Shown here: in pieces, positions 781 to 12,571 of the stretch
How the letters are laid out: each line of letters starts with the position of its first letter
Numbering within the stretch: the stretch's first letter is position 1
Source of the DNA: Candidatus Woesearchaeota archaeon
GTDB lineage: Archaea; Nanobdellota; Nanobdellia; Pacearchaeales; GW2011-AR1
Length of the DNA stretch: 13,897 bases
Direction of reading: 5' to 3'
Assembly: GCA_964362025.1 (NCBI GenBank)
Contig: CAYICW010000004.1
Coordinates: 1-13,897, forward strand
Made by a program: the position numbers and the translations under genes
Notes under the pieces: model-generated
What the model was told of the DNA's origin: nothing
The model's database searches: none
Seen by the model: the letters and a program-made list of their open reading frames with translations, nothing else

Positions 781-794
781 GAAATCTTTATAAA
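781..794 (+). promoter_or_regulatory. Archaeal BRE/TATA promoter element (gaaatctttataaa) for the 824-4906 operon
   Basis: Matches a motif recurring in this window, GAAA(T/C)CTTTA(T/A)A(T/A)A. There are 29 nt between the motif end and the ATG at 824. Confidence 0.5.
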
Positions 795-823: not shown

Positions 824-2521
824 ATGAGCAGAAAAGGCAGCAAATTAAGGAGCATAGGAACCTATTTCCTTGCGGGATCTTTGGCGGTCGGAAGTGCAGC
901 TTATGCACAGCAAGATGTCTTAAAAAATAATCCTCTTGCACCTAGGCCCGAGTCCTGGGATGGCATTCCCCTTCTATATCAAGATACTAAAGATACTACT
1001 CATAAAAATATTTCTGATGCTACTCCAATCAATCCTGAAAAATCTCAAAATCTCATATACGCTGAAGCGGAATTAACATCTGCAGGAGACGGCGTTCTGG
1101 CAAAATCCTATGTGACTGAAGTGAATGTTTCTCCTGACAATGAATACTCCCTAAAAAGCAAATTTTCCTCAAAAGACAAGATCAAATATTTCTTCACAGA
1201 TGCCAGAAAAGGGCTTGAGAGAATAGTGAAGAAGATGGGGCGTGACAGCAAATTGACCGGAAAAGAAAAAGCCATAAAATATTATTTAAGGGGGCTTGCA
1301 AGAAAGCTAAGATCCAATGATAAAGCCAGCTTAAAGTTGTTAAACACTGCTGTTAAAGATGGAATTATTTCTCCTGAAGAAGACGGGCTTTACAATGAAA
1401 AAGGATGGAAAGTTAAGGATGATGTTTACATGGCTGTTGTCAAGACAAAAAGCCAGGAGACTCCATTATTGTTATATTTCAGACCAAAAACATACGCAGA
1501 AGCAAGAAAAAAAGAAGGCAGGTTGGAACAGGAAATTAAAAAAGAAGCAAAGCCTGAGGAAACTCGTCAGGCGGACGCCAAAATGTCATCCGCAAGCGTG
1601 GCCGAGTTAGAGAAAAAGGACAGTTCAGAGACAATTACAAAATATGAAAAAGAAAAACAGGAAGCAGGAAGGGATAATCTGAGAGTAAAAGAACCAGTTA
1701 TTTCTGATAGTTTAGAAACAAAAGAATCAATTTTTATTGATAGCTCTGCAACAGAAAAACCTTTCATAGAAGTAATCGATGGTATTCTTCAATTGCTAAA
1801 GCCATATGATTCCCTGACAACTGAACAGAAGAAAGAATATCAGATGGAATATGCTAATTTTTGGGGGGCAAAAGATATAGTGGGAGTTAATCCTGAACTT
1901 TATGTTGTCATAGAGGATTCAACAAAAGAAGAGGAAGCAAAGCCCGAGAAAAATGCGGGCGGACCTGGATTTGGATTAGAGGCCGGAGTTGGAAATAACG
2001 GCGAGAAAACAGTCGGAGTTTTTGGAGATGTTCCATTGACATCATGGCTAAAATTAGGAGCATATGCAAATTACTCGGCAGCAAGAGGAAATTCTTATTC
2101 TTACGACGAGAGAACAGAGATTACACAGAGAGAAAGGCAATTGATAGGACCTGCAACTTACAAGCAAAGGACAGACGAAATAACCACAACCCTTGAGGAT
2201 ATGGCAAGAGCAGAAGTAGGAGCTGGAATCACACTAAAGATTTCAGAAAATGTGGAAATTCCATTTAGGGTTGGAGCAAAAATATTGAATGAAAAGGAAA
2301 TCAAAGAGGGAAAGAGCACAATAGTCCATGAAAGAAACGCGCAAATTCTTGGAGAAGCAAAAACAATAACAGGTCAGACAGAAAGCGACAGTCCAGTCAA
2401 CAGATTGTCATTAAGCGCAGGAGCAATATATAATATAAACAAGAACTTGGCTGTTGGCGCTGAATTCAACAGAACAGGAAATTATAATCAAGGACAAGTA
2501 AATTTGAGGGTGGGTTTTTAA
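824..2521 (+). CDS. Secreted protein (565 aa): Sec-type signal peptide, K/E-rich central region, and a C-terminal OMP-like 8-strand beta-barrel domain ending in Phe
   Basis: The N-terminus is MSRKGSKLRSIGTYFLAGSLAVGSAAYA|QQ, a positive n-region, hydrophobic core and AxA cleavage site. The C-terminal ~187 aa (nt 1958-2518) show eight amphipathic alternating-hydrophobic strands (GFGLEAGVG, TVGVFGDVPL, LKLGAYANYS, AEVGAGITLKIS, VEIPFRVGAKIL, LSLSAGAIYNI, LAVGAEFNRT, QVNLRVGF) and a terminal F. Confidence 0.85.
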   Translation: MSRKGSKLRSIGTYFLAGSLAVGSAAYAQQDVLKNNPLAPRPESWDGIPLLYQDTKDTTHKNISDATPINPEKSQNLIYAEAELTSAGDGVLAKSYVTEVNVSPDNEYSLKSKFSSKDKIKYFFTDARKGLERIVKKMGRDSKLTGKEKAIKYYLRGLARKLRSNDKASLKLLNTAVKDGIISPEEDGLYNEKGWKVKDDVYMAVVKTKSQETPLLLYFRPKTYAEARKKEGRLEQEIKKEAKPEETRQADAKMSSASVAELEKKDSSETITKYEKEKQEAGRDNLRVKEPVISDSLETKESIFIDSSATEKPFIEVIDGILQLLKPYDSLTTEQKKEYQMEYANFWGAKDIVGVNPELYVVIEDSTKEEEAKPEKNAGGPGFGLEAGVGNNGEKTVGVFGDVPLTSWLKLGAYANYSAARGNSYSYDERTEITQRERQLIGPATYKQRTDEITTTLEDMARAEVGAGITLKISENVEIPFRVGAKILNEKEIKEGKSTIVHERNAQILGEAKTITGQTESDSPVNRLSLSAGAIYNINKNLAVGAEFNRTGNYNQGQVNLRVGF

Positions 2522-2522
2522 G

Positions 2523-2927
2523 ATGAAAAAAGGAACAATAACACAAGCTTCAGAATACAAATCAGTTGAGGAAAAAGTCTTTACACCCATTGGAAAAAGA
2601 TTACAGGATTTCGGGCAGGCATTTTATGGAGGAGCTGCTATTTATTTCAGAATTCCTACTACTGTTAGAAAAATTATGAATGTCCAAACCATTACAACCA
2701 AGAATGAAGGAGATCTGTCAAATAGTTTTGTATTGGGAGGATTTATTGGATTAATTAGTACGCCAGCTTATATCTTTAAAAATAATTCATTTGAATTAGA
2801 GACTTTACTTTACAGCTTCTTGGCAACAAATGTTATCTCTGGAATTTATGAGTTGGGAAGACTTTCAACAAGCAGGCAAGAACATGTTCGATTAAAAGCT
2901 TCTAAACTGGAGGAAAAAGCAAGATGA
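2523..2927 (+). CDS. Small membrane protein (134 aa, two predicted TM helices)
   Basis: Starts 1 nt after the stop of the upstream gene. SD-like GAGGGTGGG lies at 2506-2514. Hydrophobic segments are FVLGGFIGLISTPAYIF and LLYSFLATNVISGIY. No family recognised. Confidence 0.7.
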   Translation: MKKGTITQASEYKSVEEKVFTPIGKRLQDFGQAFYGGAAIYFRIPTTVRKIMNVQTITTKNEGDLSNSFVLGGFIGLISTPAYIFKNNSFELETLLYSFLATNVISGIYELGRLSTSRQEHVRLKASKLEEKAR

Positions 2928-4669
2928 AAACACAAAAATTAATATTAATTCCAGCAATGCTGATTTTATCAGTCTTCTTACTTTCGGTTATAAGCGCTTC
3001 AAGCGTTACGGTTTCATTATTTTATGACGCTACAACCTCTAACGCGCTTACAATAATGAACGGAGACAGCACAAATATAATAGTAAGCGCTGATTCCATA
3101 TTCGAAAATAGCATGACTGTAAGGATAGATGTGCTGGACAAGGCTGGTGCCTTGGTTTCAAATATATTGGATACATACACTACAAGCGATTCTTATTCAA
3201 AATATTTGGCAATAGGAAAACCCGCATACCTTGGTCCTGGAAATTATACAATAAAAGCAACTGTAACAGGCGCGAGCGGACAAAGCGATACAGACAGTTT
3301 ATATCTTACGGTGTTAACCGTAACTCCAGGAAATACCGCACCTGTAATAACATCTGCTCCTATAATAACAGTAAATGAAACACAAAACTATAATTATCAG
3401 GTTACTGCAACAGATGCCGATGGAGATGCACTCACATATTCATTGACACAAAGCCCACAAAATCCTCCATGGCTCTCAATAAACAGCCTCGGACTTATAA
3501 CCGGAATTGCTCCCAATGTCAGCTCTGATTATTCCTATGCTGTAACAGTGAAGGTTTCAGATGGAAAAGACTTTGACCTTCAGACTTTCCCGATAACTGT
3601 AAAGGATACAAATCAGGCAGGGGACACAACTCCTCCCTTTGTAAATGTGATTTTCCCTGTAAGTGGTGCAACTTATTCAAGCAATTCATTGACATTCATT
3701 ATGAATACAAACGAGCCTACAGCAAGAGCATGGTATGTTTTATTAAGTGACATGATTCCAGTTGACATGACAGAAATAACTTCAACCAGCTTCACAAAAG
3801 ATGTTGTCTTGGGAGATGGCTCTTATGAGGTGGTATTTTATGCGAAGGACCTTGCAGGAAATGTTGGAACAAGCGATATCATAAATTTCTCTGTGAAAAA
3901 AGGCGCAGTTGATACAACTCCCCCTGTCGTAACAGTAATTTCTCCAACAAATAATCTGGTTTATAATTATTCAAACATTAATTTTGAGATAACAGCCAAT
4001 GAAGCATTAAGCAATGCCTGGTTTAGCCTTGACGGTGGAGCAAATGTTTCCCTGAATTCAGTATCCAGCACAGATTTTACAAAGATAGTCGCTGTTGCAA
4101 ACGGAAATCATAATGTTGTTTTCTATGCCCAGGATTTGGCAGGAAATATCGGATCAAGTCAGGTTACTTTCGGTGTGAATGTGATTATTGCGCAGGATAC
4201 AACTCCTCCATACTTAGAAATCTTTTCTCCTGAAGAAGGAATTACATACACTTCTTATATTACTACTTTATCCTTCCTAGCATCTGACCCTAATCTTTAC
4301 ATATGCTGGTACAGTGTGGATGGCGGCGTGACAAGGAATCCCATAACCTGCAATGTTTCGGTAATAGGACTAACTTCTGTTGAAGGAAAAAACAACTGGA
4401 CAGTTTATGCAATAGACCTGGCTGGAAATCAGGCAAGCAAGACAGTTACATTCTATGTAAATATTCCGGGACAGGAAGATAAGAAAAGCTCAAAAAACAA
4501 GGGAGCGAGATATGTTACTGATACCGACGGGACAAAGCAATATCTTAGCCAGTTTGCTCCTCAAACAATTGACGATGATGGAGGAATAAAATTAGCTGGA
4601 GAACAGCCTTCATTCTGGGACAATTTCATAAACTGGCTAAAGAGCATATTCCACTGGATTTTTGGGTAA
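2924..4669 (+). CDS. Surface adhesin-like protein (581 aa): signal/anchor, Ig-like domain, He_PIG/cadherin-like domain, and three tandem DTTPP Ig-like repeats
   Basis: ATGA overlap with the upstream gene, and GGAGG at 2909-2913. The N-terminal hydrophobic segment is LILIPAMLILSVFLLSVISASS. The signature TATDADGDALTYSL...PPWLSIN..GLITG...Y...V.VSDG is typical of putative-Ig (He_PIG) or dystroglycan-type cadherin-like domains. Three ~95-aa repeats each carry DTTPP..V..I.P...Y....W(Y/F)..DG......V.YA.DLAGN, which resembles bacterial Ig-like (Big_5-type) domains. Confidence 0.85.
   Translation: MKTQKLILIPAMLILSVFLLSVISASSVTVSLFYDATTSNALTIMNGDSTNIIVSADSIFENSMTVRIDVLDKAGALVSNILDTYTTSDSYSKYLAIGKPAYLGPGNYTIKATVTGASGQSDTDSLYLTVLTVTPGNTAPVITSAPIITVNETQNYNYQVTATDADGDALTYSLTQSPQNPPWLSINSLGLITGIAPNVSSDYSYAVTVKVSDGKDFDLQTFPITVKDTNQAGDTTPPFVNVIFPVSGATYSSNSLTFIMNTNEPTARAWYVLLSDMIPVDMTEITSTSFTKDVVLGDGSYEVVFYAKDLAGNVGTSDIINFSVKKGAVDTTPPVVTVISPTNNLVYNYSNINFEITANEALSNAWFSLDGGANVSLNSVSSTDFTKIVAVANGNHNVVFYAQDLAGNIGSSQVTFGVNVIIAQDTTPPYLEIFSPEEGITYTSYITTLSFLASDPNLYICWYSVDGGVTRNPITCNVSVIGLTSVEGKNNWTVYAIDLAGNQASKTVTFYVNIPGQEDKKSSKNKGARYVTDTDGTKQYLSQFAPQTIDDDGGIKLAGEQPSFWDNFINWLKSIFHWIFG
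3623..4465 (+). repeat. Three tandem ~95-codon domain repeats inside the adhesin gene (3623-3910, 3911-4195, 4196-~4465)
   Basis: Each unit starts with GA(C/T)ACAACTCC(T/C)CC (DTTPP) and ends after the (V/T)VYA.DLAGN motif. The repeats are diverged at the DNA level and conserved at the motif level. Confidence 0.8.
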
Positions 4670-4678
4670 GGAGATAAA

Positions 4679-4906
4679 ATGACAATAACAAGAGACGAAA
4701 GAACAAGGTTTAATCTTGAAAATTATTTGAAAATGGTTTTTCATCCAGAAGGATATAGGAGATTTATGGAAAGAAGAGTATATGACTTATACATTAAAAG
4801 TCCCGAAGCTGAAGATCTTGTAAATGCCGCAATTTTTGCAGATTATTCTAAATATGTTCTTTTAGGCATTGGAGTCGCAGTGATAACTTATGAACTTATC
4901 AAATAA
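4679..4906 (+). CDS. Small tail-anchored membrane protein (75 aa)
   Basis: AAGGAG SD at 4668-4673, 5 nt before the ATG. The C-terminal hydrophobic segment is YVLLGIGVAVITYELI. It is the last gene of the 824-4906 operon. Confidence 0.6.
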   Translation: MTITRDERTRFNLENYLKMVFHPEGYRRFMERRVYDLYIKSPEAEDLVNAAIFADYSKYVLLGIGVAVITYELIK

Positions 4907-4962: not shown

Positions 4963-4985
4963 AGTTATACATATAAGTTATACAT
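4963..4985 (+). promoter_or_regulatory. Direct repeat AGTTATACAT x2 (4963-4972, 4976-4985) between the TATA box and the vapB start; candidate VapB/VapBC operator
   Basis: Two exact 10-nt copies with a 13-nt period. The second overlaps the ATG. The operator role is inferred from the known autoregulation of type II TA operons. Confidence 0.35.
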
Positions 4986-5211
4986 GGCAATAGAAGTCAG
5001 GACAAAGAAATGGGGAAATTCAATAGGCATAATCATACCTAGCGAGGCTGTTGAAAGACTAAACATAAAGCCCGAGGAAAAGATAGTAATTGAGATAAAT
5101 AGAAAGGGGAATGTTCTTGAAGAAATGTTTGGAACAATGAAATCCAAAAAGACGGCAAAGATGATGGTTAATGAAGCACGCAAAGAGATGAAAAGCAAAT
5201 GGATGAAATAG
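4984..5211 (+). CDS. vapB: AbrB/SpoVT (MazE-fold) family antitoxin, VapB-like (75 aa)
   Basis: The N-terminal sequence VRTKKWGNSIGIIIPSEAVERLNIKPEEKIVIEI is the swapped-hairpin AbrB/SpoVT signature (KWGNS.G..IP). It overlaps the downstream PIN gene by 13 nt. Confidence 0.85.
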   Translation: MAIEVRTKKWGNSIGIIIPSEAVERLNIKPEEKIVIEINRKGNVLEEMFGTMKSKKTAKMMVNEARKEMKSKWMK

Positions 5212-5573
5212 ACAAATGCCTTGATACTTATGCATTAATTGAGATTAAATTGGGAAATCCAAAATTTAAAGATTATCTAAATCATAATTTTGTCATTGTT
5301 GATTTAATATTGGCAGAATTTTACAGCGTTCTTCTCAGGGAAGAAAATGAAGAAACAGCAAACTTTTGGTTTAAAAAACTTGAAAGTTACTCAATTCCGG
5401 CGAGCAAAGAGATTCTTATTGAAGCGGTAAAATTCAGGCATAAACACAAAAAAGATAATATTTCTTTCTTTGATGCAGTTGGATATATTTTCTCCCTAAA
5501 AAATGGCTATAAATTTGTTACAGGAGACAAGGAATTTCAGGGATTATTAAATGTTGAATTCAAGAAAAAATAA
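5199..5573 (+). CDS. vapC: PIN-domain ribonuclease toxin, VapC-like (124 aa)
   Basis: The conserved acidic residues sit in typical PIN context: LDTYALIE (first Asp), LAEFYSVL (Glu), FFDAVGY (Asp) and VTGDKEF (Asp). The gene is paired with an upstream AbrB-type antitoxin. Confidence 0.85.
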   Translation: MDEIDKCLDTYALIEIKLGNPKFKDYLNHNFVIVDLILAEFYSVLLREENEETANFWFKKLESYSIPASKEILIEAVKFRHKHKKDNISFFDAVGYIFSLKNGYKFVTGDKEFQGLLNVEFKKK

Positions 5574-8315: not shown

Positions 8316-8819
8316 ATGTCAGAAAAAGAGACAATATTCTCGAGCAAGATAAAATACAACGGGGTTTTTTCTTTTACGGAATTTTATAAGTTTTGCTATG
8401 AATGGTTAAGTGACGAAACTGGATTAAGCATCCATGAAGATAAGTATGGGGAAAAGCTAATGGGAGATTCAAAAGAGATAGTGGTTGAATGGACTGGCGA
8501 GAAAAAAATGACTGACTACTTCAAATTTGAGGCAAAAATAACAATTAAGGTAAAAGATCTGACAAAAGTTGAGGCTAATCAGGGCGGGGCGAAGGTGCAG
8601 ATGAACAAAGGCAGCGTTGAAGTCGGAATAAAGGGCAATCTTGTAAGGGATTATGAAGGAAAATTTGAGACAACTGCTTTCAAGAAATTTTTAAGAAGCA
8701 TATATGAAAAATGGGTTATTGCATCGAGGATAGAGCATTATGAGGACAAAATAATCGGCAGCTGCGATGAGTTCTTGTCGCAGGCAAAAGCCTATCTTGA
8801 TCTTGAGGGAAAACGGTAA
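8316..8819 (+). CDS. Hypothetical protein (167 aa)
   Basis: Clean ORF with typical codon composition. No family recognised. Its last five codons and stop (GAGGGAAAACGGTAA) form the start of the 51-bp tandem repeat. Confidence 0.7.
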   Translation: MSEKETIFSSKIKYNGVFSFTEFYKFCYEWLSDETGLSIHEDKYGEKLMGDSKEIVVEWTGEKKMTDYFKFEAKITIKVKDLTKVEANQGGAKVQMNKGSVEVGIKGNLVRDYEGKFETTAFKKFLRSIYEKWVIASRIEHYEDKIIGSCDEFLSQAKAYLDLEGKR

Positions 8820-8917
8820 ATTTTTCCGCGTCGTTTTATTTAATGAAAAACGCCGGAGGGAAAACGGTAAATTTTTCCGCGTCGTTTTATTTAATGAAAA
8901 ACGCCGGAGGGAAAACG
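8805..8917. repeat. Perfect 51-bp tandem duplication (8805-8855 and 8856-8906) plus an 11-nt third start (8907-8917); a further degenerate box GAGGAAAACGATGA lies at 8937-8950
   Basis: The unit is GAGGGAAAACGGTAAATTTTTCCGCGTCGTTTTATTTAATGAAAAACGCCG and the two copies are identical by eye. Each unit holds two 6-bp hairpins, GGAAAA-n8-TTTTCC and CGTTTT-n9-AAAACG, plus T-tracts. Confidence 0.9.
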
Positions 8918-8954
8918 ATGAAATTGAAAAAAGACAGAGGAAAACGATGACATA

Positions 8955-8968
8955 GAAATCTTTAAATA
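8955..8968 (+). promoter_or_regulatory. BRE/TATA promoter (gaaatctttaaata) for the 8990 gene
   Basis: Consensus motif with 21 nt between its end and the ATG at 8990. Confidence 0.5.
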
Positions 8969-8989
8969 CAAATTCTTTCTGATTTGAAT

Positions 8990-10375
8990 ATGAAAAGAGT
9001 ATTTATTTTAATGATTCTGCTTGTATTGGCTCTTCCATTTGTGCTTTCTTTGAATTTAAATGTCGAGAAAACAAGCTCTGGAGAGGTTATGATTGCTGAC
9101 TTGAAAAAACCGGCTGATTTTAACCTTAAAATAGCAAATCTGGGCGCGGCAGACTATATAGAATTTTATAATTTGCTTGGATTTCAGATGTTTCCCATCG
9201 GAACAACCTATATCGGCGCTGGAGAAACAAAAGAGATAGTTTTGAGGGTTTCCCCCCTAGGAGACCTAAAAACAAGGGGGCATTACACCTTTGATTATTT
9301 CATAAGGGGAGGAGACAAGTCAGAGACAAAACAAACATTGACTTTCCAGATAATAGATTTGAAGGATGCTTTTGAGGTTGGCTCTGGAAATATAGAAACA
9401 CAATCAATGTCCCTTCAGATATATATTCATAATAAAAATAACTTCAACTTTGGAAATATAACCGCCAAATTCAATTCAGCCTTCTTTGATTTTGAAAAGC
9501 AATTCAGCCTTGGACCATATGAAAGAAAAAATTTTGACATTCAATTAAACAAAGAGGACTTCAATAGCCTGATGGCAGGATTCTATACCTTGAATGTTGA
9601 GGCAGAGGTTGGGGGAAAGACCGCTGAGATTGAGGGTGTCATAAAATATGCTGAAAAAGATGTGCTGGCAACAAGCTCAACAAATTACGGATTTGTAATA
9701 AACACAGAAGTTATCAAAAAAATAAATGAGGGGAATGTTGTTGCGCAAACAGAAACAGTAGTCAAAAAAAACATTATTTCGAGGCTATTTACAACCCTTA
9801 CTCCTGAACCAGACAGTGTTGACAGGCAGGGCTTGACTGTTTATTATGTATGGAACAGGGAATTAAATCCAGGGGAAACGCTGGAGATAACAGCAAGAAC
9901 CAACTGGCTGTTCCCTCTTGTTGTTATATTATTGATTGTGGCAATAGTTTTGCTTGTGAAACAATATTCAAGGACCAACATTGTGCTGAAGAAAAGAGTT
10001 AATTTTGTAAGGGCCAAGGGAGGCGAATTTGCGCTAAAGGTTTCCATATTTGTGAATGCAAAAAAATATGTGGAAAGAGTAAACATAATAGACAGGCTTC
10101 CTCCTCTTGTGAAGCTGTATGAAAGATACGGCGGGGAAAAGCCAACAAGAATCGACGAGAAGAACAGGAAACTGGAATGGAATTTCGAGAAGCTTGAAGC
10201 AGGGGAAACAAGAGCATTGTCCTACATAATATTCTCAAAGGTTGGAATATTGGGAAAATTCGCGCTTCCATCTGCAAGCGCAATATATGAAAAAGACGGG
10301 GAAATAAACGAGACAGAATCCAATAAGGCTTTCTTTATAACAGAGCCAAGAGTCAAGGGTCCTGAAGAGAGATAA
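8990..10375 (+). CDS. Bitopic membrane protein (~461 aa): signal peptide, large beta-sandwich-like ectodomain, one TM helix, and a further CARDB/DUF11-like beta domain after the TM
   Basis: The track starts at a TTG (8984), but the ATG at 8990 fits the promoter spacing better. The signal-like N-terminus is MKRVFILMILLVLALPFVLS. The TM helix is WLFPLVVILLIVAIVLLV. Recurrent motifs of the type ...GET.E(I/L)....(V/Y).. occur (GAGETKEIVLRV, NPGETLEITART, EAGETRALSYIIF), as in CARDB/DUF11-type archaeal surface domains. Confidence 0.8.
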   Translation: MKRVFILMILLVLALPFVLSLNLNVEKTSSGEVMIADLKKPADFNLKIANLGAADYIEFYNLLGFQMFPIGTTYIGAGETKEIVLRVSPLGDLKTRGHYTFDYFIRGGDKSETKQTLTFQIIDLKDAFEVGSGNIETQSMSLQIYIHNKNNFNFGNITAKFNSAFFDFEKQFSLGPYERKNFDIQLNKEDFNSLMAGFYTLNVEAEVGGKTAEIEGVIKYAEKDVLATSSTNYGFVINTEVIKKINEGNVVAQTETVVKKNIISRLFTTLTPEPDSVDRQGLTVYYVWNRELNPGETLEITARTNWLFPLVVILLIVAIVLLVKQYSRTNIVLKKRVNFVRAKGGEFALKVSIFVNAKKYVERVNIIDRLPPLVKLYERYGGEKPTRIDEKNRKLEWNFEKLEAGETRALSYIIFSKVGILGKFALPSASAIYEKDGEINETESNKAFFITEPRVKGPEER

Positions 10376-11244: not shown

Positions 11245-11388
11245 CCCTCCATAGCTCAGTGGCAGAGCGTTCGGCTGTAGATTATTTAAGCGAATCTAAG
11301 GCGGATATTCCCTACGACGGAAATTAAATGAAACCCCAAAAGCCGAGCAGTACCCGAGAGATCCCCGGTTCGAGTCCGGGTGGAGGGA
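11245..11388 (+). tRNA. tRNA-Tyr (anticodon GTA at 11277-11279) with a ~72-nt intron at the canonical 37/38 position; CCA not encoded
   Basis: Manual fold. Acceptor CCCTCCA/TGGAGGG with C1-G72 (the archaeal/eukaryal Tyr identity pair). D arm GCTC-AGTGGCA-GAGC. Anticodon stem TTCGG (11270-74)/CCGAG (11354-58). Variable loop AGATC. T arm CCCGG-TTCGAGT-CCGGG. Discriminator A at 11388. Confidence 0.85.
11281..11352 (+). other. tRNA-Tyr intron (~72 nt) with a bulge-helix-bulge-like splice motif
   Basis: C75-T76-G77-T78 pair with G47-C48-A49-G50 (coordinates 113xx/112xx) to form a 4-bp central helix. It is flanked by a 3-nt bulge AGA (11279-81) on the 5' strand and TAC (11351-53) on the 3' strand. 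The outer helix is weak (T-A, T.G). An internal ATTTAA(11284-89)/TTAAAT(11324-29) stem is present. Exact splice sites may be off by 1 nt. Confidence 0.6.
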
Positions 11389-11559: not shown

Positions 11560-11660
11560 GGTCAAAAGGGGATAAAACTATTGAGTTAGTTCCGGAAGAG
11601 GAAGAAGATCAGGAAGAGTTATTTGAAGAGGAGATTGATTCTTTGGATCTTGACGGTTAA
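11556..11660 (+). CDS. Candidate acidic micro-protein (34 aa, MRSKGDKTIELVPEEEEDQEELFEEEIDSLDLDG)
   Basis: ATGA-coupled to the preceding micro-ORF. It is followed by T-tracts (taatttttatttttt). Its stop overlaps the stop of the convergent metzincin gene within TTAA (11657-11660). Confidence 0.35.
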   Translation: MRSKGDKTIELVPEEEEDQEELFEEEIDSLDLDG

Positions 11661-12571
11661 TTTTTATTTTTTATATTTAAATTTATTCCATTATTCTCCT
11701 TGCTTAACTCGGCTTCGTCGGAAGATACAATGAATTTCAGTTCACTGGTTTTTATCTGTAGCACCAGAATATTTTTAAGAGTTATTTTTGTGCCATAACC
11801 TATTTTCAATTCCTCTATATCCAGTTCTTTTATCAGTTTTCCATCGGCATATATTTCCATTGTTGAATTCTTAGAGTCCGCAAGGCCCTCGTTCATAACC
11901 GTGATATTTGCATCCAAATATTTTCCATGCATGACTGCGGACGCATTTTCTATGGACAAATCAATATAACTTGGAGTGGAATATAAATTGTTTATTGTGT
12001 CTATCATGTCCTGACTTATTTCCTGATTGCAGCTGCTAAAATTATACATTATATTATTTGGATTTGGAGAATGGTCAAATCCAAGAACATGAAACAGCTC
12101 ATGTATTCCCACATTTGGACTAGCGCATTGTGATTCTCTTATTAGAAGAATTTGCCCTCCTTTTATAACATTAAAATTGGAAGTCATTGTTACGTTTGTC
12201 GGGCCTCCTTCTCCAGCGATAAACAATTCCCCCTCTCTTTTATTTTTTGAATCGCATGTCACACTTATTTCCTCGTTGCTTACAACCTGATAAAAATTCA
12301 ACGAGGTTTTATTGGCGATTATTCCAAAAGCCCTTTCCATATCTTCCTGCTTGCCAAGCGGGCAATTATCTACACGGTAGGAAATGTTCAAGGTTGGAAA
12401 TCTCATATTAGGATGAAACTGCATTCCCTTGTCTGATGCATTCAGGCTAAAATTATAATTTCGCTCTTTAAATCCAAAGTTAATATCATTAAATGGAACT
12501 ATCCAATAAAGACCTAAAAGGATAATTACCACAAGGAAAAAGACAAAACTTAAAAAAATCCTTAGGTTCAT
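11657..12571 (-). CDS. Membrane-anchored zinc metalloprotease of the metzincin clan (matrixin-like HExxHxxGxxHS) with a C-terminal CARDB-like beta-sandwich (304 aa)
   Basis: The N-terminal TM is IFLSFVFFLVVIILLGLYWIV. The zinc site HELFHVLGFDHS lies at nt 12103-12068 and is followed by the Met-turn NNIMY. The C-terminal ~100 aa (LSIENASAVMHGKYLDANITVMNEGLADSKNSTMEIYADGKLI...) resemble CARDB. A TATA box, ttttatataa (minus strand, 12601-12592), lies 20 nt upstream of the ATG. Confidence 0.85.
   Translation of the reverse strand: MNLRIFLSFVFFLVVIILLGLYWIVPFNDINFGFKERNYNFSLNASDKGMQFHPNMRFPTLNISYRVDNCPLGKQEDMERAFGIIANKTSLNFYQVVSNEEISVTCDSKNKREGELFIAGEGGPTNVTMTSNFNVIKGGQILLIRESQCASPNVGIHELFHVLGFDHSPNPNNIMYNFSSCNQEISQDMIDTINNLYSTPSYIDLSIENASAVMHGKYLDANITVMNEGLADSKNSTMEIYADGKLIKELDIEELKIGYGTKITLKNILVLQIKTSELKFIVSSDEAELSKENNGINLNIKNKN

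Follow-up and report, generated by a model that had tools for sequence, protein, structure and literature searches.

A conserved gene pair encoding a predicted OmpA/OmpX-like β-barrel protein and an immunoglobulin-domain stalk protein in Nanoarchaeota, Woesearchaeota, and Pacearchaeota

In a 13,897-nucleotide (nt) stretch of DNA from a Candidatus Woesearchaeota archaeon (positions 1 to 13,897 of contig CAYICW010000004.1, GenBank assembly GCA_964362025.1), four consecutive open reading frames (ORFs) occupy positions 824 to 4906 of the forward strand. This whole stretch is called the window below, and its features are listed in Table 1. Gene 1 encodes an exported protein that ends in a predicted β-barrel, gene 3 encodes an exported protein composed of immunoglobulin (Ig)-like domains, and genes 2 and 4 encode small proteins. 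An initial annotation had proposed that the four genes form one operon for a dedicated surface-display or cell-contact apparatus. I re-examined the unit and its relatives in other genomes; all the evidence is computational. The positions of the four ORFs and their spacings of +1, −4, and +9 nt agreed exactly with the re-read sequence. The TAA stop codon of gene 1 is separated from the ATG of gene 2 by 1 nt, the gene 2 and gene 3 ORFs overlap in an ATGA sequence (2924–2927), and 9 nt lie between the stop codon of gene 3 and the start codon of gene 4. Shine-Dalgarno (SD)-like motifs are present, as had been claimed, upstream of all three internal genes, and upstream of none of the six other window genes tested (background 4.2% per position). 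The TATA promoter proposed for gene 1 was also found, and seven of eight homologous loci (L001, L003, L004, L005, L006, and L008 among them) have a similar box (TTTATAA or CTTATAA) equally far upstream of their gene 1 homologue. By ORFs, spacing, and motifs, the tight unit of exported and membrane proteins is real, and the region has the layout of one predicted, tightly packed transcription unit behind one TATA box.

Table 1. Features of the predicted transcription unit and of its surroundings in the window
Feature	Window position	Strand	Description
TATA-box-like element	787–794	+	TTTATAAA (TTTATAA box), ~30 nt upstream of the gene 1 ATG; putative promoter of the unit
Gene 1	824–2521	+	565 amino acids (aa)
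Gene 1, signal peptide	824–907	+	aa 1–28, MSRKGSKLRS...GSAAYA↓QQ
Gene 1, N-terminal globular domain (N-domain)	1049–1501	+	aa 76–226, α/β, fold unrecognised
Gene 1, K/E-rich linker	1502–1966	+	Variable in length and sequence in the family alignment, mostly disordered
Gene 1, linker motif	1793–1831	+	LLKPYDSLTTEQK, aa 324–336, conserved, within the confident island of the linker
Gene 1, C-terminal β-barrel	1967–2521	+	aa 382–565, predicted eight-stranded and OmpA/OmpX-like, ends ...VNLRVGF
Gene 1, barrel strands			aa ~382–390, 395–404, 409–420, 461–472, 477–488, 524–537, 542–551, 554–565
Gene 1, long polar hairpins of the barrel			aa 421–460 (40 residues, L2) and 489–523 (35 residues, L3)
SD-like motif before gene 2	2506–2514	+	GAGGGTGGG, inside the last codons of gene 1
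Gene 2	2523–2927	+	134 aa, small protein in the variable slot
SD-like motif before gene 3	2909–2913	+	GGAGG
Gene 3	2924–4669	+	581 aa, exported Ig-domain stalk
Gene 3, domains			Signal peptide aa 1–25; conserved D1–D2 aa 26–228; variable D3–D5 aa 229–515 (two Big_13, one Glucodextran_B-like); then a linker
Gene 3, tail			aa 564–581, aromatic amphipathic, FWDNFINWLKSIFHWIFG
SD-like motif before gene 4	4668–4673	+	AAGGAG
Gene 4	4679–4906	+	75 aa, lineage-specific accessory ORF
MazE-antitoxin/PIN-toxin gene pair	4984–5573	+	13-nt overlap; between the unit and the thermosome gene
ORF before the tandem repeat	8316–8819
Spurious ORF	8767–8955		Reads through the repeat region
Tandem repeat	8805–8925		51-nt unit, 2.4 copies, 97% identity, TRF score 226; in the gap between ORFs 8316–8819 and 8984–10375
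Overlapping repeat	8895–8958		29-nt repeat
ORF after the tandem repeat	8984–10375	+	Encodes 463 aa; signal peptide, late transmembrane helix, family not recognised
tRNA gene	11245–11388	+	144 nt, Rfam 52 bits, missed by ARAGORN
Metalloprotease gene	11657–12571	−	Secreted M10/astacin-like protein with a CARDB domain

Is this gene order kept in related genomes? Relatives were collected by an exact-protein lookup, a scan of GTDB species genomes, and a metagenome scan; up to ~20 kb of each locus were examined, and the components were then mapped by tblastn. The barrel genes obtained form 18 clusters at 90% identity, and three more divergent loci were added. A lineage was regarded as informative if it has enough sequence downstream of the barrel gene. 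Two lineages that stop less than 470 nt past the barrel gene are uninformative, and 19 lineages are informative. A gene 3 homologue follows the barrel gene on the same strand in all 19 of these non-redundant lineages, with no counter-example, and all the lineages with the pair are Nanoarchaeota, Woesearchaeota, or Pacearchaeota. The two genes are separated by 1–5 nt or by a single small ORF. The adjacency is kept even though the flanking genes change: one group of loci has thermosome, EamA, and Pyr_redox_2 genes around the pair, and another has the ArgRS gene and a membrane-anchored staphylococcal nuclease (SNase)-like gene. The partner gene starts 1–3 nt after the stop codon also in the two weakest-scoring members whose contigs were read, P0085 (E = 1e-8), which adjoins EF-1alpha and thermosome genes, and P0100 (E = 7e-4), which adjoins the gene of ribosomal protein L35Ae.

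The small genes behave differently from the pair. The slot between genes 1 and 3 is empty in about half of the lineages, while in the others it holds one small ORF belonging to one of at least six mutually unrelated families, gene 2 included. The slot ORFs encode two-helix transmembrane (TM) hairpins, lipobox-bearing proteins, or soluble proteins. A single conserved small adaptor in the slot was rejected, since an all-against-all phmmer comparison gave no shared family beyond close relatives; only faint similarity (E = 0.02–0.05 in a tiny database) was seen among three Gly-rich two-TM hairpins. Gene 2 homologues form only three clusters among 5.8 billion proteins, and they occupy the same slot only in L009, L010, and L012, which make up a sub-clade. 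The database search with gene 4 returned gene 4 itself only, and a single relative was found in locus L004 (40% identity, E = 1e-13). The description of gene 2 as a two-TM protein is plausible, as it has hydrophobic segments at residues 69–85 and 92–108, although these are weak (best 17-residue Kyte-Doolittle averages of 1.76 and 1.25). The same holds for the description of gene 4 as tail-anchored; its C-terminal hydrophobic segment (residues 59–75) reaches 1.64.

When checked by synteny, co-conservation of the four genes thus failed for genes 2 and 4, and only genes 1 and 3 remained adjacent throughout. Since these two are co-conserved without exception while genes 2 and 4 are not, the comparison showed the conserved unit to be a putative, translationally coupled two-gene envelope cassette (genes 1 and 3) with variable accessory ORFs. 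The proposal that all four genes make one dedicated surface-display or attachment apparatus, in which an adhesin would work together with two small membrane adaptors and with a pore or anchor, draws on the tight spacing, the SD coupling, and the single promoter, and small ORFs with hydrophobic segments do recur around the pair elsewhere. The sub-clade distribution of gene 2, the single relative of gene 4, and a slot that is either empty or filled with unrelated ORFs, some of them soluble or lipobox-bearing, speak against it, and an eight-stranded barrel is too narrow for a secretion pore, as judged from what is generally known of OmpA and OmpX. The four-gene apparatus is largely refuted because co-conservation is lacking, and I regard it as very unlikely.

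Further observations concern the SD-like motifs and the slot. The motif before gene 2, GAGGGTGGG, falls within the codons that specify ...R-V-G-F, the conserved C-terminus of the gene 1 product, and is absent from the other loci, so that it may be partly a by-product of the gene 1 coding sequence. AAGGAG, the motif before gene 4, recurs in L001 and L002, where it precedes the small ORF that follows gene 3 and is not homologous to gene 4. Three unrelated slot ORFs have lipobox-like signal peptides (L002 8756–9085, ...GMSGC; L031 3042–3371, ...LSLYGC; L022 564–1010, ...AMALGC), which suggests that these archaea may produce lipoproteins.

The host of the window is archaeal, because the window has a thermosome gene (762 bits against the NCBIfam thermosome model), related contigs carry archaeal genes (PCNA, primase, EF-1alpha, L35Ae, and diphthamide synthase), and the metagenome-assembled genomes (MAGs) carrying gene 1 family members are named Nanoarchaeota, Woesearchaeota, or Pacearchaeota. 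An exact-sequence lookup of the gene 1 translation gave no match; the homology search then retrieved an identical protein, deposited from a MAG named "Nanoarchaeota archaeon". It was considered whether gene 1 could be a bacterial contaminant, a product of chimeric assembly, or a recent non-functional transfer, as its barrel matches an essentially bacterial Pfam family and its signal peptide and terminal Phe are bacterial in appearance. The gene lies between archaeal genes on more than 20 independent contigs from different samples, its GC content matches that of the flanks, and an archaeal-type TATA box is conserved upstream; these three findings refute contamination and chimerism. Moreover, the family has diverged to less than 30% identity and yet has kept its architecture and partner gene, no clearly bacterial member appeared in the profile search, and the contigs of P0085 and P0100 are archaeal. 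An artefact or a non-functional transfer is therefore extremely improbable.

The family alignment of gene 1 products shows a signal peptide ending in AxA↓Q, the conserved N-domain, a variable linker, and a C-terminal domain of ~185 residues ending in Phe. By inspection, a basic n-region and a short h-region precede the AxA↓Q site of the signal peptide, and this pattern recurs in nearly all full-length members. A hidden Markov model of the N-domain matches 58 of 98 family representatives. The AlphaFold2 (AF2) model of this domain is well defined (predicted local distance difference test [pLDDT] 84.9, predicted template modelling score 0.80); no match was found by Foldseek in the PDB (best E 0.73) or BFVD (best E 0.41), and none in Pfam or NCBIfam, so that the domain gave no hint of a function. 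In the linker, pLDDT is below 50 at residues 231–310 and 352–378, with an island of 78–83 at about residues 311–350. The motif LLKPYDSLTTEQK in this island is duplicated in the L001 homologue and is recognisable in several distant members. With PHROGs and PADLOC, gene 3 had one weak match of unknown function and the other three genes had none; phage and defence readings were dropped on this result. In the NCBI annotation, proteins of the gene 1, 2, and 4 types are hypothetical.

The initial annotation had noted a barrel-like C-terminus in the gene 1 product. This was confirmed in a stronger form than claimed: the domain specifically matches the OmpA/OmpX class among the bacterial outer-membrane proteins (OMPs), which is unexpected in an archaeon. 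The isolated domain scores 30.6 bits against the Pfam family OMP_b-brl (PF13505; cutoff 28.7), and 12 of 13 family members match this family at E ≤ 0.01. Its AF2 model is an all-β meander with pLDDT 86–91, in which the turns T1–T3 on the side of the termini have four residues each and the long hairpins protrude on the opposite side. In a Foldseek search of the PDB, the model matched OmpA (9fzd, 1qjp, 1bxw), Ail (3qra), OmpX (1qj9), and a designed transmembrane barrel (6x9z) with E = 2e-6 to 2e-4. The autotransporter barrels of NalP, EspP, and AaaA are lower in the list, with target-normalised TM-scores of 0.13–0.20. A type V autotransporter was rejected, as such a protein requires a barrel of at least 12 strands, wide enough to take up a linker or passenger segment, and the barrel here has eight strands. 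A profile sequence search of the PDB gave a chance match only, and thus the relation to OMPs is visible only via Pfam and the fold.

A test independent of AF2 used an alignment of 66 family members on the domain profile, from which the mean hydrophobicity of each column was calculated. Hydrophobicity alternates in all eight strands. Each strand has four to six outward hydrophobic positions, and the inward positions are occupied by Gly, Glu, Lys, Arg, Asn, or Ser. This hydrophobic-out, polar-in pattern is that of a predicted lipid-embedded barrel and the inverse of that of a soluble barrel. Phe565 is invariant in all 66 aligned members, in the context Φ-x-Φ-x-Φ-x-F, and 79 of the 101 listed family sequences end in F. 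How widely is this domain distributed? The homology search with gene 1 gave 14 clusters, and an exhaustive profile search of 1.84 billion representatives gave 90 barrel-family members, nearly all of them 360–555 aa in length with the barrel at the extreme C-terminus. The latter search did not reach the large bacterial OMP families, and no clearly bacterial member was listed. As far as the retrieved sequences tell, the barrel family is small and distinct, and it is archaeal in every context examined.

Gene 3 encodes about five Ig-like domains according to Pfam: an N-terminal PKD-like domain, a He_PIG/Big_9 domain, two Big_13 domains, and one Glucodextran_B-like domain. The Ig repeats reported earlier were thereby verified, and the aromatic amphipathic C-terminus was likewise recognised in the sequence. 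The distal D1–D2 part is the best conserved (majority fraction 0.62–0.68, versus 0.35–0.43 for the membrane-proximal domains). The number of middle domains varies among the homologues, and hence their lengths range from 492 to 775 aa. Of 11 homologues, seven finish with a complete TM helix and basic residues after it, and four with a short amphipathic aromatic tail. No sequence-similar chain was found in the PDB, solved S-layer proteins included.

What could such a pair do? It may have a role in attachment or cell contact. I propose a model, to which I give an even chance, in which the barrel lies in a second lipid layer and the Ig stalk bridges this layer to the archaeal membrane. The stalk would stand on the cytoplasmic membrane via its C-terminal anchor, and the barrel would sit either in an outer membrane of the archaeon itself or in the membrane of a partner cell. 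The topology of the barrel would place both termini on the short-turn side, facing the archaeon. Since this side is the face from which the protein arrives, the N-domain would remain on the side of the archaeon, hanging by the flexible linker between the two layers and outside the cytoplasmic membrane. It would dock on the conserved D1–D2 tip of the stalk and thus tie the layers together; the conservation of D1–D2 is as expected for a partner-binding tip. The conserved hairpins of the barrel would serve oligomerisation or the binding of a conserved ligand.

Several points weigh against this model. The contact between the two products is deduced solely from the adjacency of their genes, which could reflect mere co-expression of two envelope proteins acting independently. 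To my knowledge, no outer membrane and no machinery like the β-barrel assembly machinery (BAM) have been described for these archaea. The gene 3 product of the window is one of the four with an amphipathic tail and has no full TM helix. As to the barrel, the full-length gene 1 protein scores 27.7 bits, just under the OMP_b-brl cutoff of 28.7, and the structural model was built on an alignment of 14 sequences. The Foldseek matches to OmpA, Ail, OmpX, and the designed barrel have a probability of 1.0 but moderate target-normalised TM-scores (0.46–0.63), which is due to the long hairpins. These two hairpins are conserved like the strands, unlike the typical surface loops of bacterial barrels, which leaves the analogy with bacteria incomplete, and they account for 16 of the 27 most conserved columns. 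Their conservation points to a conserved partner or to oligomerisation.

An alternative is a cell-coat function. Gene 3 could encode the coat or stalk protein of an S-layer on a single-membrane archaeon, and the barrel would then be a hydrophobic oligomerisation or lipid-binding module that is not embedded in lipid. The build of the gene 3 product (signal peptide, β-sandwich domains, C-terminal TM helix and then basic residues) is generic for archaeal coat proteins, the pair lies in a housekeeping neighbourhood, and strongly conserved hairpins fit protein-protein packing. Oligomeric eight-stranded OMPs that pack via a large loop have been described (PMC12228718). The continuous belt of four to six outward hydrophobic residues per strand around a polar interior, on the other hand, matches a bilayer, and without a membrane the invariant terminal Phe and the OMP-type topology have no easy explanation. 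In addition, none of the solved S-layer proteins resembles the gene 3 product in sequence. I consider the coat function unlikely.

The barrel could also be a secreted effector that inserts into the membrane of a host as a harpoon or for lipid extraction, independently of an outer membrane of the archaeon, with the gene 3 product as the adhesin. There is a precedent in PopA, a predator β-barrel that is reported to insert into the prey membrane (PMC12228718). From what is generally known of OmpA and OmpX folding, small eight-stranded OMPs can fold in bilayers without BAM in vitro, and a secreted nuclease gene after the pair in several loci would fit a scavenging context. Two highly charged hairpins of 35–40 residues would, however, have to cross the target membrane unaided. 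Secretion is predicted as far as the Sec step. This effector function seems rather improbable.

A stronger claim is that DPANN archaea of the Woesearchaeota/Pacearchaeota type make genuine lipid-embedded β-barrels of the OMP type, which would imply either an outer membrane of their own or a barrel planted in a partner's membrane. I consider this claim possible but doubtful. The presence of transmembrane β-barrels with a C-terminal Phe signal is regarded as characteristic of bacterial outer membranes and of organelles that derive from these, and such barrels are not known from the outer membranes that some archaea have. If the claim is true, the family would be the first of its kind in Archaea. 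The barrel and the Ig stalk would form a purely proteinaceous tether between two membranes, made without a recognisable BAM or with one of an unknown kind. Literature searches, whose coverage was incomplete, found no account of this family or of β-barrel OMPs in these archaea; nor did they find a described system with this composition, in agreement with the initial annotation. What is new is the occurrence of a known fold in a domain of life where it was not expected, together with a new architecture and an obligate partner gene. The pair raises the questions of whether these uncultivated DPANN cells have a second membrane, how a barrel would be assembled without BAM, and whether the pair physically joins symbiont and host. 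For experimental work, it offers two proteins whose domains are defined, one of them with an invariant Phe, and it serves as a marker for the lineage.

Some observations on the neighbourhood of the cassette are added here. In the second group of loci, a membrane-anchored SNase-like gene lies after the Ig-stalk gene (L003 13482–14318, L005 7702–8481, L014, L015, L023, L025, and L028). The L003 protein has a lamin-tail domain, and the genes of L003 and L005 have their own TATA-like box. The enzyme is likely used for scavenging extracellular DNA. In other loci, a gene for an EamA-family transporter lies directly upstream of the barrel gene (L004 6910–7761, L006 2758–3609, L008 7074–7931, L012 1035–1871, L024, and L031). 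These EamA genes are 61–67% identical between loci whose contexts otherwise differ, and a Pyr_redox_2 gene often adjoins. The window starts too near gene 1 to show whether these two genes are upstream. The MazE/PIN gene pair downstream of the cassette has its own TATA-like box. In L001 and L002, such a pair lies upstream of the cassette instead, in differing orientations, and L004 is among the loci that have no such pair between the cassette and the thermosome gene. The MazE/PIN pair behaves as a mobile toxin-antitoxin module, as judged from these gene orders. The thermosome gene of L002 (11553–13089, reverse strand) is split into at least four ORFs, which represent either a pseudogene or frameshift errors of the assembly. 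Farther downstream in the window, two exported proteins are encoded, the 463-aa protein and the metalloprotease, and both are kept in the neighbourhood of related loci. The tRNA gene between them evidently has a long intron of ~70 nt; long tRNA introns are typical of archaea. Two overlapping repeats and a spurious ORF lie before the gene of the 463-aa protein.

How does the pair compare with known systems? In Ignicoccus hospitalis, the dominant protein of the second, outer membrane is Ihomp1 (Imp1227); the gene 1 barrel might likewise lie in a second membrane of an archaeon. Ihomp1 is a small α-helical oligomer, not a β-barrel, and is unrelated to the gene 1 product in sequence and lineage. 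The gene 3 product has the generic build of archaeal coat or stalk proteins such as SlaB-type S-layer stalks: a signal peptide, tandem β-sandwich domains and, in most homologues, a TM helix and basic residues at the C-terminus; it is also encoded in an operon with a partner. The gene 3 product differs in that it has no sequence relation to solved S-layer proteins and that a lipid-type barrel takes the place of a canopy protein as its partner. Archaea with two membranes have been documented in Ignicoccus, ARMAN (a DPANN group), the SM1/Altiarchaeum group, and Methanomassiliicoccus (PMC4243693). PopA and BT1926-type OMPs are small or porin-like barrels whose oligomers are held together by a large conserved loop. 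For PopA, entry into the membrane of another cell has been reported, and a possible distal archaeal relative in Altiarchaeales is mentioned (PMC12228718), which is the nearest remark found in the literature. The gene 1 barrel has eight strands, compared with 16 strands and a plug in PopA, belongs to a different DPANN lineage, and comes with both an N-domain and a neighbouring partner gene. Kinship with BT1926-like eight-strand OMPs, which are characterised by a radial homo-oligomer built around a large central loop, is hinted at only by the unusual conservation of the long hairpins.

The closest counterparts of the barrel itself are OmpX, Ail, and OmpA. The gene 1 product has in common with them the Sec signal peptide, eight antiparallel strands of amphipathic character, inward-facing polar or Gly residues, turns that are short where the termini lie, the C-terminal ...Φ-x-Φ-x-F, and, as in OmpX and Ail, long protruding hairpins. 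The gene 1 barrel differs in its host, which is archaeal in every locus examined and not a diderm bacterium. It is placed C-terminally behind an N-domain and a linker, and its hairpins are much longer (~35–40 residues) and are among its most conserved parts. The biological setting that defines the OmpA/OmpX/Ail class is a diderm bacterium or an organelle, an outer membrane, and assembly by BAM/Omp85. In every testable feature of the class except the host, the barrel agrees with it. It is therefore OMP-like in structure and, because the host is not a diderm bacterium, it is not filed as a member of the bacterial OMP family. The proposed arrangement also shares its logic with the tethers formed by OmpA and by OmpM/SlpA, in which a barrel in the outer layer, a linker, and a globular domain between the membranes fasten the layers together. 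The order of an N-terminal anchor domain, a stalk, and a C-terminal barrel in OmpM/SlpA is that of the gene 1 product, although the OmpM/SlpA barrels are much larger. According to Pfam, the gene 1 product has no OmpA_C, SLH, or other wall-binding domain, so that it is not counted among these tethers and the likeness is architectural only; the partner proposed here would be a membrane-anchored Ig stalk in place of a cell-wall polymer.

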